Shown here: one piece after another, positions 2,890-50,349 of the stretch
Layout of the letters: each line of letters starts with the position of its first letter
Position numbering within the stretch: position 1 is the first letter of the stretch
From: Lama guanicoe
Lineage: Eukaryota
Assembly (NCBI GenBank): GCA_013239625.1
Contig: MU053216.1
Coordinates: forward strand, 622,001-686,000
Length of the DNA stretch: 64,000 nucleotides
Reading direction: 5' to 3'
Translations under genes and position numbers: made by a program
The notes under the pieces: model-generated
Told to the model about the DNA's origin: nothing
Database searches by the model: none
What the model saw: the letters and a program-made list of their open reading frames with translations, nothing else

Positions 2890-3654
2890 CAGTTAGAGGA
2901 CGGGGGGCCTGAACACCTGTGCCGGGACGGCGGTGCGCGGTCTCCCCTCCGCCTCCCTCCTCCAGCGCCACACGGGGCGCGCCGGGTGGTTTGCCCACGA
3001 CCTTCAGAACAAGCTGCAGCAGCGGGGCGGACAGACGGCTCCCCGCAGGGCAGAGCCTCTCCCGAGCACGGGAGGAGGGGGCGTCTTTCATCCACCACGC
3101 AGAAGGGCAGCCAGCAGCCTCGGGGTCGACTGGAAAGGCCTTAGGGATTTCCACCTGCTGTCCGGCATAGGGTAGAATTAAATGTCAACCTCTTCAAAAA
3201 GAACTGATTCTCTGTCTTTTTCCAGGCCACCCCTAATTCAGAAAATTCATCTGCAGCCGAGGATTGCTTCCGGTACGCTAAGCTGAAGACACTCAAGAGT
3301 TAACCGATGAAACGGCAAAACCATGCCACCATCACATGAACACTCCCTGCAGAGTCAGAATTCACAAGAAACAACTTAACTTTCCAAAGCGATACAGCAC
3401 TTAGGAGAACAAATTGAGGAGGCCTTAAGAAACGGAAAGCATTTTCCCTGCAGTTCAACATACCCTCAGCCTTGAACTGTTCTTCTGATGAACATCTTGT
3501 GTTTACGACTGGAAGTTAAGAGCTCTGGGCTGGAAGGCAAATGCTGCAAACACACGAACGGCCAGCAGGCACAGTGTCACTTGTCAAGGGGGCAACGCCG
3601 CCCCAGCCACCATGCGCAGCCTTGCCTGCGCTAGATGGCTATCTTTTTTTTTTT

Positions 3655-16122: not shown

Positions 16123-16534
16123 GGTTGAAGGTGGTTTCTGCGGAAGGACAAGGAAAAAGACGAGAGGAGGCGGGCTTGGAGAAAACCACCCGGGACAAGA
16201 GTAAGTGTGAGCTGTTGCAGTGCCGCTGCCGAGAGTGCGTGTGCACGTTCAGTCTTAACACTGCCTCCCCTCGAGGCGGGGCAGCACTGTCCTTGTTCCA
16301 CAGATGGTGATGGCGAGTCCCGGAGGAGGAAGCAGCCGGAACCCGTGTCGGGTAAGCGGCCGTCCCGGGGCCCAACCAAGCCCGCTGGCCCGGAGAGCCC
16401 GAGCTTTAACCGTGACACCCGCGCGCCTGTTGTGTTTCCCTGGAGCCCCTGGACTTCCGTTTTGAGGCGTTTTGTGAACTCTCTGGTTTCTAATGGATTG
16501 TTTGAAGTTGTGTGTTTATTAACTGTCTTCACTG

Positions 16535-17267: not shown

Positions 17268-17389
17268 TTTCTCTCCCCCTCCCCCCTCCCNNNNNNNNNN
17301 NNNNNNNNNNNNNNNNNNNNNNNNNNNNNNNNNNNNNNNNNNNNNNNNNNNNNNNNNNNNNNNNNNNNNNNNNNNNNNNNCTCTCTCCC

Positions 17390-18144: not shown

Positions 18145-18405
18145 ATGTCTAAGGTGGCCAAGTATCGCCGGCAGGTGAGCGAGGACCCTGACATCGACAG
18201 CCTGCTGTCCACCCTGTCTCCCGAGGAGATGGAGGAGCTGGAGAAGGAGCTGGACGTGGTGGACCCAGACGGGAGCGTTCCCGTGGGGCTGCGGCAGAGA
18301 AACCAGACAGAGAAGCTGTCCACGGGCGTGTACAACCGGGAAGCCATGCTCAGCTTCTGTGAGAAGGAGACCAAGAAGCTCATCCAGAGGGAGACGTCCA
18401 CAGAT
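18145..18405 (+). CDS. LMOD1: LMOD1 (leiomodin-1) coding exon 1, 87 aa, tropomyosin-binding N-terminus
   Basis: caagATGtct; MSKVAKYRRQVSEDPDIDSLLSTLSPEEMEELEKELDVVDPDGSVPVGLRQRNQT...; ends GAT|gtgagt; 261 nt, phase 0. Confidence 0.97.
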
Positions 18406-24071: not shown

Positions 24072-24460
24072 TGGGTTCAGGTGATGGGGGTGGGTTCAGG
24101 TGATGCAGGGTGGGTTCAGGTGATGTGGGGCTGGGTTCAGGTGGTGGGAGGTGAGTTCAGGTGATGGGGTGGGTTCAGGTGATGCAGGGAGGGATCAGGT
24201 GATGGGGGGGGGGTCNNNNNNNNNNNNNNNNNNNNNNNNNNNNNNNNNNNNNNNNNNNNNNNNNNNNNNNNNNNNNNNNNNNNNNNNNNNNNNNNNNNNN
24301 NNNNNNNNNNNNNNNNNNNNNNNNNNNNNNNNNNNNNNNNNGCGGGGCGGGTTCAGGTGATGCGGGGCGGGTTCAGGTGATGCGGGGTGGGTTCAGGTGA
24401 TGGGGTGGGTTCAGGTGATGGGGGTGGGTTAGGTGATGCAGGGTGGGTTCAGGTGGTGCA
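24072..24460. repeat. G-rich minisatellite (18-21 bp unit, GGGTTCAGGTGATG core) spanning an assembly gap (N 24216-24341)
   Basis: More than 10 visible copies across both sides of the gap. Confidence 0.92.
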
Positions 24461-43991: not shown

Positions 43992-45431
43992 GAGGGCAAG
44001 CAAGTGGAGACCAAGACAGATGCCAAGAGCGGAGAGCAAAGGGGCAGGGGTGCCGGCAGAAAGCCCCTGGGCCCCAGGCAGGACTCGGACCAGGGGAGGG
44101 AGCCACAGAGCGGTGGTTTAAAGAAAAGCTTCTCGAGAGACAAGGAAGAAGCTGAGGGCAAAGGTGCAGAGAGGCCCAAGGAGGAGAAAGTCATCAGGGG
44201 CCTGGAGAAGGGCCGGGTCAGGGCCGCGGTGGACAAGAAGGAGGCCGGGAAGGGGGGGCGGGCAGACGAGGAGACTGCGGCCCCCAGGATGGACGAGGAC
44301 AGGCAGGGGGCTGAAAGGAGTGCGGGGGGGAGCAGAGACAGGGGGCGGAAGGGGGCGGACAGGAAGGAGGCGAGCGAGAGAGAGGAGACTGCAAAGGTGA
44401 AGGGGCCCAGCCAGGGCGCGGGTGCCCGGATGGAGGCCGAGAAGGTGGAGAGAGGGGGTGGCAGCGTGCTCGCCGGGAAGGGGGCCGAGAGAGCCAGGAA
44501 AAACGAGGCCCCCAACCCAAAGGCCCCCGGAGAAGAGGGCAAGACGCCTGCACCAGAGAGGCCGGCCCCCGGGGCCCCCACCAAGGCCGAGGAGGAGGCA
44601 GCCCCCAGCATCTTCGACGAGCCCCTGGAGAGGGTGAAGAACAATGACCCGGAGGTGACAGAGGTCAACGTGAACAACTCGGACTGCATCACCACGGAGA
44701 TCCTGGTGCGCTTCGCGGAGGCGCTGGAGTTCAACACGGTGGTCAAGACCTTCGCCCTAGCCAACACGCGGGCGGACGACCACGTGGCCTTCGCCATCGC
44801 CATCATGCTCAAGGCCAACAAGACCATCACCAGCCTGAATCTGGACTCCAACCACATCACCAGCAAGGGCATCCTGGCCATCTTCCGGGCCCTGCTCCAG
44901 AACAGCTCGCTGACCGAGCTGCGCTTCCACAACCAGCGCCACATCTGCGGCGGCAAGACGGAGATGGAGATGGCCAGGCTGCTCAGGGACAATGCCACCC
45001 TGCTCAAGCTGGGCTACCACTTCGAGCTGGCCGGGCCCCGCATGGCCGTCACCACCCTGCTCAGCCGCAACATGGACCGGCAGCGGCAGCAGCGGCAGCA
45101 GCAGCGGCGGGCACAGGAGGCCGGCGGGGAGAAGGCGCTGCTGGAGGTGCCTGAGGCCAGGGCCCCCGCCAAGGGCTCTCCCAGGCCCTCCCCGCAGCCG
45201 TCCCCCAAGGCCGCCCCCAAGAACTTGCCCGGGAAAGGGGGCGGCCCGGCCGCGCCCCCGCCGCCCCCGCCCCCCCTGGCCCCACCCCTCATCCTGGAGA
45301 AGCTGAGGAACTCGCTGTCGCCGGCTACCCAGCGGAAGATGGGCGACAGAGCCCTTCCCGCCCAGGAGAAGAACTCCCGGGACCAGCTGCTGGCTGCCAT
45401 CCGCTCCAGCAACCTCAAGCAGCTCAAGAAG
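43992..45431 (+). CDS. LMOD1: LMOD1 coding exon 2, 480 aa: charged linker, LRR (ABS2), proline-rich segment and most of the WH2 domain
   Basis: Polypyrimidine tract then tag|GAG GGC AAG; in frame with ORF 44004..45911; tropomodulin-type LRR (NNDPEVTEVNVNN...LNLDSNHIT...LLKLGYHF); ends SRDQLLAAIRSSNLKQLKK. The 3' boundary is inferred from orthology because the donor is non-canonical (TT). Confidence 0.95.
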
Positions 45432-45935
45432 TTAAGTAGCTGCAGCGGGGCTGGCCCCAGGCTGGCCACCCCTGCAGCTCCCCAGGGGAGACTGTCCCTC
45501 CTCCCGGAGAAGCTTCCTTTAGCCCCTCACCCTGCAGCCTCAGGCCTTCCTCTGAGTCCTCCCTCCCCTTCCCAGAACATGGTCTGTTTGCCTGACTCTC
45601 AGAACCAGCCAAGTCCTCAGGTCAGTCTACCCCGAAGGTCTGTAGGAGATTCAGCCTCAGGAGACCCTGCTTGTCGAGGCTCCCTGGGGGCAGATCCCCA
45701 GTCCCCACCGGTCACACCAGAGATAAAGCACCCTCTGACTGTGACTCCAGGGTCATTTGCTATCATCCAGTTTTTACAGAAAAGGGAGAATGCAGGCTCC
45801 GCCCAAACCCCACGTCTCTGTTCTGCAGGCGCACGCACTCTGAGTGTCTGGTCTCCGGAAGGAAGGGAGGTGAGGGATTCCAGGGCCCACATCCGGGACC
45901 CCCTCCTCTAAACTGCCTCTGCTTTGCTCTTGCAG

Positions 45936-45962
45936 GTGGAGGTGCCCAAGCTGCTGCAGTAG
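45936..45962 (+). CDS. LMOD1: LMOD1 coding exon 3 (VEVPKLLQ*)
   Basis: ctttgctcttgcag|GTG GAG GTG CCC AAG CTG CTG CAG TAG; matches the LMOD1 C-terminus and completes the WH2 LKKV motif. Confidence 0.92.
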   Translation: MEVPKLLQ

Positions 45963-47259
45963 GACCGCCACAGGCTGTCAACGCCACGCCACCCAGACCC
46001 TGCCCACCCGCCCGGCTGACCTGCTCTGCACGCCCCTCTCTGCCAGGGGGCAGCTAGAGGCCTGGCCAGCTCCGGGAAGGACGCCTTCTCTCTCCTCACT
46101 TTCCTGTTCTTGTCTCTGAGGCTCTCCAAAAATACCGTTTATAGCCAGAGCTGAGCTTTCAGGACAAGAAGAGTCCCTTCAGACCGAGAAGATGGCACAC
46201 CTGGGGCCCATGTGGCTGGCCAGCTGCCAAAGGCCTATGATCCAGGAAAGATGTCCCACAGGGACCACAGGACCCGCCCGGCCCCACTGCCCACCCAGGG
46301 TCAGGATTCAGGCCTCTGAGGAGCCCTTGGGGCAAAGCTGCTCGGCCAGTCCTCTCTGTGCCGGGCAAGGGCAGAAGGCTGGGGGTCCAAGGGCACAAGG
46401 CGGGAGGGGCTGAGGATACCCCCAGACCCCTCCCAGCTAACGAGAGGACATGACACAGGTAGTGGGCCTGGATGGACGTGCCTGGTGGGGAGCGGGCTCC
46501 AGACGGGAGGAGGGGACAGACTGCAGCTGGACCTGAAGGTTTGATGCCAAAGCAGACACTTCCTCACACCCACCTGCTGTTGTATAAATAGCTGTGTCTC
46601 TGTTTTTCCATAAGATTTTGATAATATATACAAGCCTTTAGCTGTGACGGCTGGGCTCACCTTGTGCTGTCTGGAGGGTCCCCTGCCACGCTACCCCAAT
46701 GGGCCGGGACACAAGCTCCCGTCCACAGAAAGCATGGCGGTGGGGACTCAGAGGGGGATGCTCCCCTGCCCTGGCTGGCCAGGCCCAGGAGAGCTGGCCT
46801 CAGCCGGGGTCCACTTCAGACCAGCCGGGCTGCCTGGGGTCACTGGGCAGAGGTGCTGTCGGTGGGTGGTAGCGGAGTGCAGCTGGGGTGGCTATATTAG
46901 GCATGTTCAGGGGACGCTCAGTCCCTGACTCTTCCTAACTTCAGGATTGGGGCCAGCTGCTCGCCGCAGTCCCAGGCCTGGGAAGGCAAAGAACTGACAT
47001 GACCACTGGGGGGAGGCCCTGTCGTCCCTGCTGCCCGGATCTCCTCTTCTGCCCCCACGCCCTCCATGGCAGGGACATCAGAGGCAACTTTCTGGTCCCA
47101 CTGGCTCCGAGATGGTGCACCCCTGTGGCTCTGGGTCTCGTGTGCGGGCGGGCACGGCAGGTTCCGGTTTCAGGGTGCAAGTGTAGGGCCCCTTCTAGGA
47201 AGCAGCCCCCTGAGCTAGGTCTGGCCGAAAACAGGGCAGGCTAGTGTCCCAGGGCGTGC

Positions 47260-48350
47260 GGCTGCCCCCTGCCTCCACCCTCGTGCCCGTCCCCAGGAAC
47301 CTAACCAAGGCCGCCCGAGCGGGCGCGCGGCTGCGCACTGCCTCTCATGCTGTCCGCCCAGCGGAGCGCAGCGTGCGTGTCTGCGGGGCTGGCGGCGCCG
47401 GCGCGGAGCCTGCCGCTCTGTGAGCTGGTGCCGGCACCGACGTCACCTCCGCGTCGCAGACAAAGCTGGGCCCAGACAGGGTGACGCACAGGTCCGTGAC
47501 CACAGAGCTCAGCCCGGAGACCGAGCTCCGCCCCAGAAGGCTTCTGGCGCCCAGGGAGCCCAGGCCAACCGGACCGCCAGGGTCCGGATCTTGACGCTCC
47601 AGCTGGCCCTGTCGCTGTGGGGCACGGGAACTTAAATCAAGGTCTGGCCGACCGAAAAGCACCTGCAGCGGTCGGCTCGCGGCCGGGGCGTCGCCCCCGC
47701 GCCCCGCCCCGCCCTCCTCCACTCCTTCCCGCCCCTCCCGCTCCGCGGGCGCTGCCGGCCGCTGACGTCATCCCCTCCGAGCTGGGGGGCGGGGCGCAGC
47801 GCCACCTGGCGGACACCTCGGCCCGGGGCCTCCCGCCGCCCCCCCCCCGCGCGCCGCGTCCCGAGCCCCGAGCCCGAGGGTGGGCTGCCGCCTGGGGTCG
47901 GGCGGCCTGGGGCGCGTCCCGGAGGCGTGGGCGCTCAGGGCTCAGCTGAACTGCGGGGAGGGCTCGCAAGGCAGGGCGGCGCGTCCGCCCGCTGCCCACC
48001 TGCCCTTCGGCCTGGGCCCCCACTATGCACCCGGCTGCCCGTCGGAGGCCGGGGGAAGGCGCAGGAGGGAATAAACGACGGTGGAAGAGCGCGAAGGGTG
48101 CAGATGACCTGACAGCTGGTGGATTCGGCCTCAAACCCAGTCTCCCACCGGCCCGGACCAGGAGGCTTCCCAGGGGCCGCCGTCCACCCCTCTCCCCGTC
48201 CAGGGGTCTCTCTGAGTCTCCCGCCCTGGTGAGGGGGCTCCAGGGCTGGCTCCTCGTCGCACTTACTGTCACAGGAGGCCCAGGCTGCAGCTCGGGACCG
48301 TGGCCACTCAGGCGGCTTCTCTGGGACGCCGAAGCTCCAAACGCGGGTCA
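47260..48350. promoter_or_regulatory. CpG island in the LMOD1 3'UTR/3' flank with a palindromic CRE and GC boxes
   Basis: Dense CpG; TGACGTCA at 47763-47770; several CCGCCC/GGGCGG motifs. Confidence 0.7.
48070..48075 (+). terminator. Candidate LMOD1 polyadenylation signal AATAAA
   Basis: First AATAAA I found downstream of the LMOD1 stop, about 2.1 kb away. Confidence 0.45.
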
Positions 48351-50349
48351 GACCATCCATCCGGGAGAGCCACATGCCAGCCTCCCTCGCGCCTCAGGTC
48401 TCAGGACCTGAACCCGCAGGTGTGGGCTTTGCCACCTGTGTCGGGGGGCAGGCTGCTGGCCTGGGGTAGGGGTCGCCCCTCCGCCACCATGCCCTGTGCT
48501 CCACGTGCCCTATCCGACCACGCACCGTCCCGTCTCTTGGCTGCCTCCTGCAGGCCTCTAACCGGCTTTACCCCACGCCGCCCGCACATGGGCTTTCCCA
48601 GCTGCCTTCATTTTACCCCCGCCGGCCGCCTCCCCCAGCGCTCGGGTTCCTGCTAACCTTTCCCTCGGCCCCACGGAATCGCCCGGTATACCTCCGCCCT
48701 CTCTCCTTGCTGTTCCCTCTGAACGCAGCCTCCCCACCACGGGAGGAGGCCCTGCTGCCCCCAGAATGCAGGCCCGTGATTTTGTGTGAACTGCTCCCCT
48801 TCTCCCAGACCCCCTCCGGGTCCTCAATCCAGCCTGGCAGGACCCCGCTCACACCACTGCAGACCCAGTCCTCGAGGGCCACCGCTTCTCCCCCCACACC
48901 ACCTTGTCGGGAGACAGCGGCTTCAGGGGTGCTAGTGGGGAACAGCTGCGCCTTGTGCCCGGTGACGAGCAGGTGAGCTGGGGTCGCCGGAGACACATGG
49001 GTGTTGCCATCTTAAAAACTCGGGGACTGAGGGGCCTCCTCCCTGCTCCCGGTACATGAAAGCTCTACTCTGTCACCATCTCCCCCTTTTCCTTAAAATT
49101 CTCTGTTTTCAGTGCTTTGCAGAGTTAGTTGGTTGGAAATGTTGGAGGGGGCGTCCACCTTGGTGGGGCAGTGGTGCCACCCATCCCAGGCTGCTCGGCA
49201 GTCTGTAACTGGCCCCAGGCTGTTGATTTGAGGATAATGAATTCTGGCTGCTGTGGCCTTGCATCCACTGACACATTTCTTAGAGAAGCTCAAAAACCTT
49301 ATCCTGCCAACCTCCTCTGCCTCCCAGCTTCAGGGGAGATAGTGGTGGGGAACACTGCAGACCTGGAGCTGACCCGGTGACTCTCTCTCCTGACCTGTGA
49401 GGGCAGAACCAGCAGACTGGACACCAGGACCCTCATGGCCCCCTCCCACCTCTCAGCTCGTCCCCTGCAGCAGGTCTGGGTCAGGTCCGGGGCAGAGGTC
49501 TGACCCTGGCCCCTTGGCAGTTGGCCCAGGAGCGCCCCTTCCAGGCTGTGTGACAAGGGCCTCCAGGGGCCCTGGTGAGCACAGTGGCCACACAGACGAG
49601 GCTGCAGGGCCCAGAGGCCTGAGGAGACCCAGAGGGAAGGCAGGTTGCAGTGGGCGGGAGTACCTGCGGGCGGAGGGAAGGGGGCCGAGCAGAGGGCCTT
49701 GGGAGCGGGGACACGGCCAGCGAGGTGGCTTTCCAAGCTGACCTGGCACTTTCCTCACTTGAATCCAAAACTATAAAATTTCCTGTCACCAGACAGGGCC
49801 GAGGGCACAAGGCCTGTTCCTCAGGGAGCAAGGCTGGAGGTGGGGGTGGGGCAGGCACCTGCCTGGCCCAGTTTGGGCCCCGTCTGGGCCGGAGGCCTCC
49901 GGTCTGGGGCTCCCTCTATGGCCCAAGGCAGCTGACAGCACCCTTCCCGGCCCCTTGGGCAGACCAGTCTCTCTCAGCTGCTGGTCAGGAAGACCAGGCC
50001 TCACCGTTTAGAGCCGGTGGGGGACCCGTCGGTCAGATGGGCGTGGGGCCCAAGTGCGAGTCCAAGTGTAGCGGACGGGTAACGTGCCTTCGGGCAGCTC
50101 GAGAGCCCATGTGCGGACTCTGGAAGGCAAACGAGCACCCTCTTCTGGGAAGCAGCACGACCCACCTCCCCAGCTCTGGGAACTGAGAAGCCCTCAGCCT
50201 GGGTGCTTCTGCCTGTGCCCCCAGCCTGGTCCTGCCTTCCCTTGCTTAGGGGACATGGAGCTGGCAGCAGTGAGGGCCCAGCTGAAGACAGTGTACGGGA
50301 GGGGTGGACAAGCCAATGATGTGACTGACAGGAGTTCTGTCTTTAGAGC

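Follow-up and report, generated by a model that had tools for sequence, protein, structure and literature searches.

How is exon 2 of LMOD1 joined to exon 3 in Lama guanicoe, when the intron between them begins with TT and not with GT? The question is raised by a 64,000-nucleotide (nt) stretch of the genome of this species (GenBank assembly GCA_013239625.1, contig MU053216.1, positions 622,001 to 686,000 of the forward strand), which was analysed as a whole and is hereafter called the window. An earlier note on this DNA had set out four options without choosing among them, namely a natural TT-AG intron, cleavage at a GT one base upstream, intron retention, and a base-call error or private variant. 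The first of these is now favoured and the last is rejected: this is very probably the camelid ortholog of a natural, constitutive U2-type TT-AG intron, the last of LMOD1, whose splicing gives the protein end LKK-VEVPKLLQ. The natural TT-AG reading is preferred because the human ortholog is catalogued as TT-AG and an identical 11-mer is reported to be cut accurately in a reporter.

The local sequence is as the earlier note had read it, with exon 2 ending CTC AAG AAG at 45431, TT at 45432-45433 and an intact exon 3 that translates to VEVPKLLQ and a stop. The bases following exon 2 are TTAAGTAGC (45432-45440), and the donor agrees with the U1 consensus from -2 to +7 apart from T at +1, again as first described. 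When compared with CAG/GTAAGTAT, the sequence of full U1 complementarity (a slash marks the cut here and below), the donor has 8 of 11 matches in the TT register, the mismatches being at -3, +1 and +8, while the alternative cuts at the -1 GT and at the +5 GT give 4/11 and 5/11, respectively. These two GT dinucleotides, starting at 45431 and 45436, are the only ones in 45400-45480, and both are out of frame; no in-frame GT or GC donor is present at the end of exon 2. At its other extremity the intron has an ordinary U2-type 3' end (...ctctgctttgctcttgcag/G), in which the acceptor reads ...tgctttgctcttgcag/GTG... and 45936 is the first base of exon 3. The last 25 nt of the intron are 68% pyrimidine, no AG occurs between 45884 and 45933, and A45912, lying 23 nt before the last intron base, is a plausible branch point candidate. 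The coordinates of all features are collected in Table 1.

Table 1. Features of LMOD1 in the window, with positions counted from its first base
Feature	Position	Strand	Description
LMOD1 coding exon 1	18145..18405	+	87 residues, MSKVAKYRRQ...TSTD; donor GAT/gtgagt, canonical GT
LMOD1 exon 2	43992..45431	+	480 residues; preceded by ...ttctgaattcttag (canonical AG, phase 0); ends ...CAG CTC AAG AAG
Non-canonical 5' splice site AAG/TTAAGTAG	45429..45439	+	positions -3 to +8; TT at +1/+2, GT at +5/+6
LMOD1 last intron	45432..45935	+	504 nt, 60% G+C, TT...AG
3' splice region	45909..45935	+	candidate branch A45912 in tctaaac; pyrimidine-rich tract; acceptor cag 45933-45935
Exon 3, coding part	45936..45962	+	GTG GAG GTG CCC AAG CTG CTG CAG TAG, translated VEVPKLLQ and stop
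Frame if the -1 GT (45431) were used	45937..46119	+	60-residue Cys-rich tail WRCPSCCSRTATGC...SCSCL (WRCPSCCS...) and stop; hypothetical by-product

The same donor is on record in human. Supplementary file 3 of Parada et al. (2014, NAR 42:10564, PMC4176328) enters the last intron of human LMOD1 (chr1:201867526-201868364, minus strand, 838 nt) as TTAG, type U2_GTAG, with a score of 87.3, supported by 7 complementary DNAs (cDNAs), 12 expressed sequence tags and 4077 reads in 14 tissues, as well as by GENCODE transcript ENST00000367288.4. The row appears both in the 'Total' sheet and in the sheet of high-confidence U2/U12-like sites (184 sites), and its tissue read count is the highest of the 27 TTAG rows in 'Total'; together with 13 high-confidence ones, obtained by subtraction, the file holds 40 TTAG entries (PMC4176328). 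That paper does not name LMOD1 in its main text, cites the TT-AG junction of ETV1 as constitutive, and states that junctions of this kind escape aligners confined to canonical sites. A search of a literature collection on LMOD1 and non-canonical splicing found no paper discussing the junction in its main text, the one preprint bringing up both subjects being unrelated to this junction, and the record consists of the supplementary table and GENCODE.

The correspondence between the human intron and that of the window extends to the gene, the position after LKK in phase 0, the flanking coding sequence with its LKK/VEVPKLLQ junction, the mini-exon encoding VEVPKLLQ and a stop, and the LSSC read-through; the two differ in length, the window intron being the shorter. 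The TT donor is an inherited, normal and already catalogued state of LMOD1 and not a lesion of one lineage; it is regarded as a normal feature and not as a defect because human LMOD1 shows the same catalogued, well-spliced TT start. The view of the TT as an unexpected +1G>T change at the level of this species finds no support; the earlier note was unaware that the human gene has the same donor.

Experimental evidence on TT donors was provided by Erkelenz et al. (2018, Genome Res 28:1826, PMC6280755). Non-canonical donors are ranked there as GC > TT > AT > GA > GG > CT, which makes TT the most used after GC. TT sites of the pattern ..G TTAAG.Ag were studied in HeLa-type reporters to which SRSF7 enhancer sites had been added. 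There the most U1-complementary variant, CAG TTAAGTAg, was cleaved in both registers, -1 and +1, and cleavage of the other three variants keeping GT at +5/+6 was confined to +1 (PMC6280755). Among natural sites, FBXO9 (aAG TTAAGTAT) was cut at both registers and ETV1 (aAG TTAAGTtg) at +1 only. The primer table gives the GT-keeping variants as atG, CAG, AAG and CtG, and its primer #4650 (AAG tTAAGTAgc) is letter for letter the sequence of the window at 45429-45440. The LMOD1 11-mer itself therefore supports accurate TT cleavage, in an enhancer-supplemented reporter. Furthermore, the features reported to accompany accurate TT cutting are present in the window, with GT at 45436-45437, and with A at -3 and G at +8 making the U1 complementarity submaximal. 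The donors of ETV1, FBXO9 and FANCC c.165+1G>T share with that of LMOD1 a G at -1, TTAAGT at +1 to +6 and the second GT at +5/+6 (PMC6280755, and Hartmann et al. 2010 as cited there); they differ in having been tested in enhancer-supplemented reporters and in an exon context other than that of LMOD1. Moreover, FANCC c.165+1G>T is a disease allele of low efficiency; in LMOD1 the TT belongs to the normal allele.

Judging from the human ortholog and from the reporter, splicing in Lama guanicoe would follow the human course. The U1 small nuclear RNA would pair with AAG/UUAAGUA in the normal register, at -2, -1 and +2 to +7, leaving +1 alone unpaired, and the 5' cut would fall between G45431 and U45432. 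Exon 2 would then be ligated to G45936, after the ordinary cag acceptor, giving an mRNA that reads ...CTC AAG AAG GTG GAG GTG... and a protein whose end, LKK-VEVPKLLQ, would complete the WH2 actin-binding motif. A related group is the shifted-register /GUUAAGU class, said to have been described by Roca and Krainer in 2009, in which the cut reportedly falls at the GU. These sites resemble the LMOD1 donor in the UUAAGUA with which U1 would pair and in the GU one base upstream of the U1-defined junction; in LMOD1, by contrast, a cut at the GU breaks the conserved frame, and the human product needs a cut one base later, before UU. Preprint 10.1101/153452 gives residues 575-600 of the human protein as the WH2 domain and assigns V595 to the terminal exon, so the exon 3 residues VEVPKLLQ lie inside the WH2 span as defined there.

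Three further candidates were tried and rejected. A U12-type intron is ruled out by the donor, which bears no likeness to the U12 box RTATCCTT. The GT at +5 (45436), out of frame and with the low consensus match given above, was unused as a donor in the Erkelenz reporters. Adenosine-to-inosine editing into a canonical donor, a process raised for some non-canonical sites by Parada et al. (2014, PMC4176328), is rejected because the non-canonical base is T.

Protein models of the junction in other camelids were compared, as the earlier note had proposed. Nine camelid LMOD1 models fall in one 90% cluster: four end VEVPKLLQ (those of C. ferus, an older one of C. bactrianus, and 'low quality' ones of alpaca and of dromedary), two, both of dromedary, use the -1 GT and end LKKWRCPSCCS..., and three, two of C. 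bactrianus and one of alpaca, read through as LKKLSSC.... Each of these endings is what an annotation pipeline would yield where an in-frame GT is lacking, and it follows that several independent assemblies share the state; use of the -1 GT in dromedary would be needless if an in-frame GT existed. In alpaca and Bactrian models LKK is followed by Leu-Ser-Ser-Cys and not by Val, which speaks indirectly against a G at 45432 and against an extra G there.

On a broader scale, the residues after ...NLKQLKK were tabulated in 136 proteins, and the 101 bearing a species name were classified; the human donor dinucleotide was taken from the Parada table and those of other species were inferred from the read-through residues. 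A VEVPKLLQ-type end is found in 68 of the 101 named mammalian models and in all mammalian orders sampled, and this conserved exon 3 end joins the human record and the reporter 11-mer in upholding the natural TT-AG option of the earlier note. A Leu-Ser read-through, which fits TTA AGT of the window, occurs in 22/101, comprising the three camelid models and 19 from other placentals, both primates and colugo (Homo, Pan, Macaca, Aotus, Carlito, Microcebus, Otolemur, Cynocephalus) and other groups (Lynx, Hyaena, Canis, Smutsia, Diceros, Desmodus, Orycteropus, Trichechus, Chrysochloris). The Diceros model continues into the intron for 22 codons before a splice returns it to VEVPKLLQ. A frameshift tail beginning W(R/K)CP after LKK is present in six models (the two of dromedary, Ailuropoda, Vulpes, Chlorocebus and Saccopteryx), an Ala-Ser read-through in three (Sciurus, Urocitellus, Acomys) and a Val-Ser read-through in one (Balaenoptera musculus), and the remaining model (Monodon) stops at LKK. 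Among proteins without a species name, those that are deer-like, narwhal-like and Mastomys-like read Val, and the cricetid-like ones read Ala. For human, the genomic conceptual model P0036 reads LSSC, and model P0037 (UniProt B3KX20, 'unnamed protein product'), which we take to be cDNA-derived, ends VEVPKLLQ.

Several points weigh against a constitutive TT-AG intron in this species. The Leu codon of a read-through model need not be TT in its first two bases; the newest National Center for Biotechnology Information (NCBI) models of dromedary use the -1 GT, and the newest ones of Bactrian camel and alpaca retain the intron. The RNA support belongs to human only. The place of the AAG variant in the group cut at +1 only is deduced from the text and primer table of PMC6280755, and the same source reports that sequence context alters the register of the cut and that a different reporter showed the FANCC TT site to be cut at the -1 GT alone (Roca et al. 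2012, as reported in PMC6280755). As regards sequencing runs, 0.93-0.99 of the words sampled from the window were present in 14 DNA runs carrying five organism labels and 0.26-0.32 in six RNA or probable-RNA runs (24 runs listed), figures that do not inform base 45432. A search for camelid transcript fragments by protein gave 7 matches among 346 candidates, none of them camelid.

The rival explanation that survives best, though it is unlikely, is that both registers are used, with the TT junction as the main one and the -1 GT taking a minority (say >10%) of transcripts, whose frameshifted isoform would escape nonsense-mediated mRNA decay because the intron is the last. Mixed -1/+1 use is reported for FBXO9 and for CAG TTAAGTAg, and by the count of the present analysis the window, at 8/11, sits between these sites (9/11) and those of ETV1 and FANCC (7/11). 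Its exact 11-mer, however, belongs to the group reported as cut at +1 only (PMC6280755), and no transcript-derived tail protein was found among 516 candidates, which is weak evidence since contigs drop rare forms. What keeps a minority -1 product in consideration is that context can move the register and that Roca's FANCC result was -1 only.

Far less probable is that AA/GTTAAGT, cut after 45430, serves as the main donor, so that the protein ends LKK-WRCPSCCS... and loses the last 8 WH2 residues. A GT does stand at 45431, NCBI dromedary models XP_064333398-400 use it, and like models exist in Ailuropoda, Vulpes, Chlorocebus, Saccopteryx and Manis pentadactyla; in addition, PMC6280755 reports FANCC as cut exclusively at -1 in one reporter and mixed use for the most U1-complementary sites. 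Nevertheless, the 4077 reads cited above support a TT-AG junction in human LMOD1, whose read-through codons are the same, the reporter cut an identical 11-mer at no register but +1 (PMC6280755), and the match to the U1 consensus from the cut at 45430/45431 is the poorest of those compared. Translation of this frame reproduces the 60-residue Cys-rich tail ending SCSCL, with the stop ending at 46119, that the earlier note had predicted; the dromedary tail has 72 residues, of which 30 of the first 34 are shared with the window before the two diverge. A cut here therefore yields a frameshift, an unconserved tail and the loss of WH2 residues. Furthermore, the tail proteins come in six of six cases from genome annotation and in none from transcript assemblies, again weak evidence, among the 516 candidates.

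There is very little chance that the intron is mostly retained in camelids, giving the read-through tail LKK-LSSCSGAGPRL.... The exon 2 frame does stay open for the first 480 nt of the intron, to a stop at 45909-45911, and the newest Bactrian camel and alpaca models read through. Against this, the read-through frame slips between alpaca and Bactrian models, the Bactrian tail ending after 56 residues; like read-through models exist for human and macaque, where the spliced form is the documented product; and the intron keeps an intact 3' splice site followed by an intact exon 3. The tails from -1 cleavage and from retention, both offered by the earlier note, are not conserved, and these two options are kept only as possible minor by-products.

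Equally slight is the chance that the cuts are really of a GT...CA type, after 45430 and after 45934, with the same mRNA as outcome. AG stands at 45430-45431 and again at 45934-45935, and 'direct repeats 2' is listed for the human LMOD1 intron in the supplementary table of Parada et al. (PMC4176328), a column that we infer to denote this ambiguity; because AG precedes both cut points, the mRNA alone cannot separate TT-AG from GT-CA. Such an arrangement would, however, require a CA 3' end in place of a well-formed cag acceptor, and the same donor 11-mer was cut before TT in reporters with an unambiguous downstream exon (PMC6280755). Lastly, an error of base calling or assembly, or a variant private to the sequenced animal, is practically negligible as an explanation: two nearby invariant residues differ from the alpaca RefSeq models, so that either the assembly or the animal departs from the reference, but the LSSC read-through recurs in alpaca and Bactrian models, dromedary models use the -1 GT, the same read-through is found in 19 non-camelid models, the human intron is listed as TTAG, and the state is thus common to several camelid assemblies and many other mammals.

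With the natural TT-AG intron as the favoured reading, the distribution of donors across mammals can be considered. The Ala-Ser read-through suggests a GC donor, AAG/GCNAG.., in squirrel, Acomys and cricetid-like models, and the Val-Ser of Balaenoptera musculus suggests a GT donor. Judged from such residues, most placental orders appear to carry TT at this donor; whales and deer-like ruminants appear to have GT there, and rodents either GC or GT. GC-AG introns offer a likeness, in that these rodent models suggest GC at the very site where the window, by contrast, carries TT. Two scans of metagenome contigs for the donor DNA of other mammals returned 86 and 175 pattern matches, none of which was confirmed. 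There is about an even chance that placental mammals inherited TT at this donor from their common ancestor, that it has persisted for tens of millions of years, and that GT and GC arose from it by independent conversions. Under such a history TT would have been kept by afrotherians, primates, colugos, carnivores, pangolins, rhinos, bats and camelids, and replaced by GT in whales, deer-like ruminants and some murids and by GC in squirrels, cricetids and Acomys. If so, one essential splice site would show all three most usable donor dinucleotides across mammals, providing a natural series for how a non-canonical donor is maintained and 'repaired'.

For annotation, the consequences are direct. 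The coding sequence here correctly ends with 45431 joined to 45936, and 28 of the 101 named public LMOD1 models are wrong at the junction, 22 by read-through and 6 by a frameshift tail. Gene finders that insist on GT or GC donors mis-build the C-terminus of LMOD1, as the three endings of the camelid models alone illustrate. The 8 affected residues are in the WH2 actin-binding motif, as defined in preprint 10.1101/153452, which ties a human missense change there to aortic disease, V595A segregating with thoracic aortic disease. Moreover, the reference T at +1 is not to be scored as loss-of-function by variant-effect tools. In terms of splicing biology, the locus adds one more ortholog to the small known class of TT-AG introns and brings no new mechanism.

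The effect of annotation is visible in a 920-residue alpaca RefSeq model, which reads through the last intron and then chains plus-strand pieces corresponding to 47280-47396, 47507-47617, 48399-48464, 48808-48972 and 49329-49550. These pieces fall in the expected 3' untranslated region of LMOD1 or beyond, and the model is probably an annotation chimera, probably because of the TT donor.

LMOD1 has three coding exons in the window, and exon 1, intron 1 (GT-AG) and exon 2 are all intact. Exon 1 is 98.9% identical to the C. ferus LMOD1 model over 87 residues (tblastn). A protein search with residues 200-480 of the exon 2 translation gave 1329 matches among 8000 candidates, of which the best 120 were listed; among these, Camelus dromedarius LMOD1 ranked first with 96% identity, and other mammals reached 85-91%. 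When camel LMOD1 is aligned to the window by tblastn, the match stops at the junction of exon 2 and the last intron.

Over 601 residues the window LMOD1 equals the alpaca model XP_072804365 save for two, 45294 A>C (Met>Leu) and 45302 C>G (Asn>Lys), which lie 8 bases apart; so close an agreement marks the animal as an alpaca or a near relative of it. The window thus reads ...PPLI-L-E-K-L-RNSL where 8 other camelid models, 4 aligned species and a 10-species consensus have I/V/L-M-E-N-L, a stretch in which M, E and L are invariant and N nearly so in the LMOD1 sequences compared. Either a genuine variant or a localised error of assembly in a GC-rich stretch could account for these changes. At the 5' end of the gene, the camel and alpaca X1 models use an alternative first coding exon, MVMASPGGGSSRNPCR, which matches 16304-16366 and in those models joins inside exon 1 at ...cag/GTGAGCGAGGAC (VSEDPD), at 18172. 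Two runs of N mark assembly gaps, one of 90 bases just upstream of exon 1 (17291-17380) and one of 126 bases in intron 1 (24216-24341). The 9-mer AAGTTAAGT has one other copy in the window, at 3382 on the minus strand.

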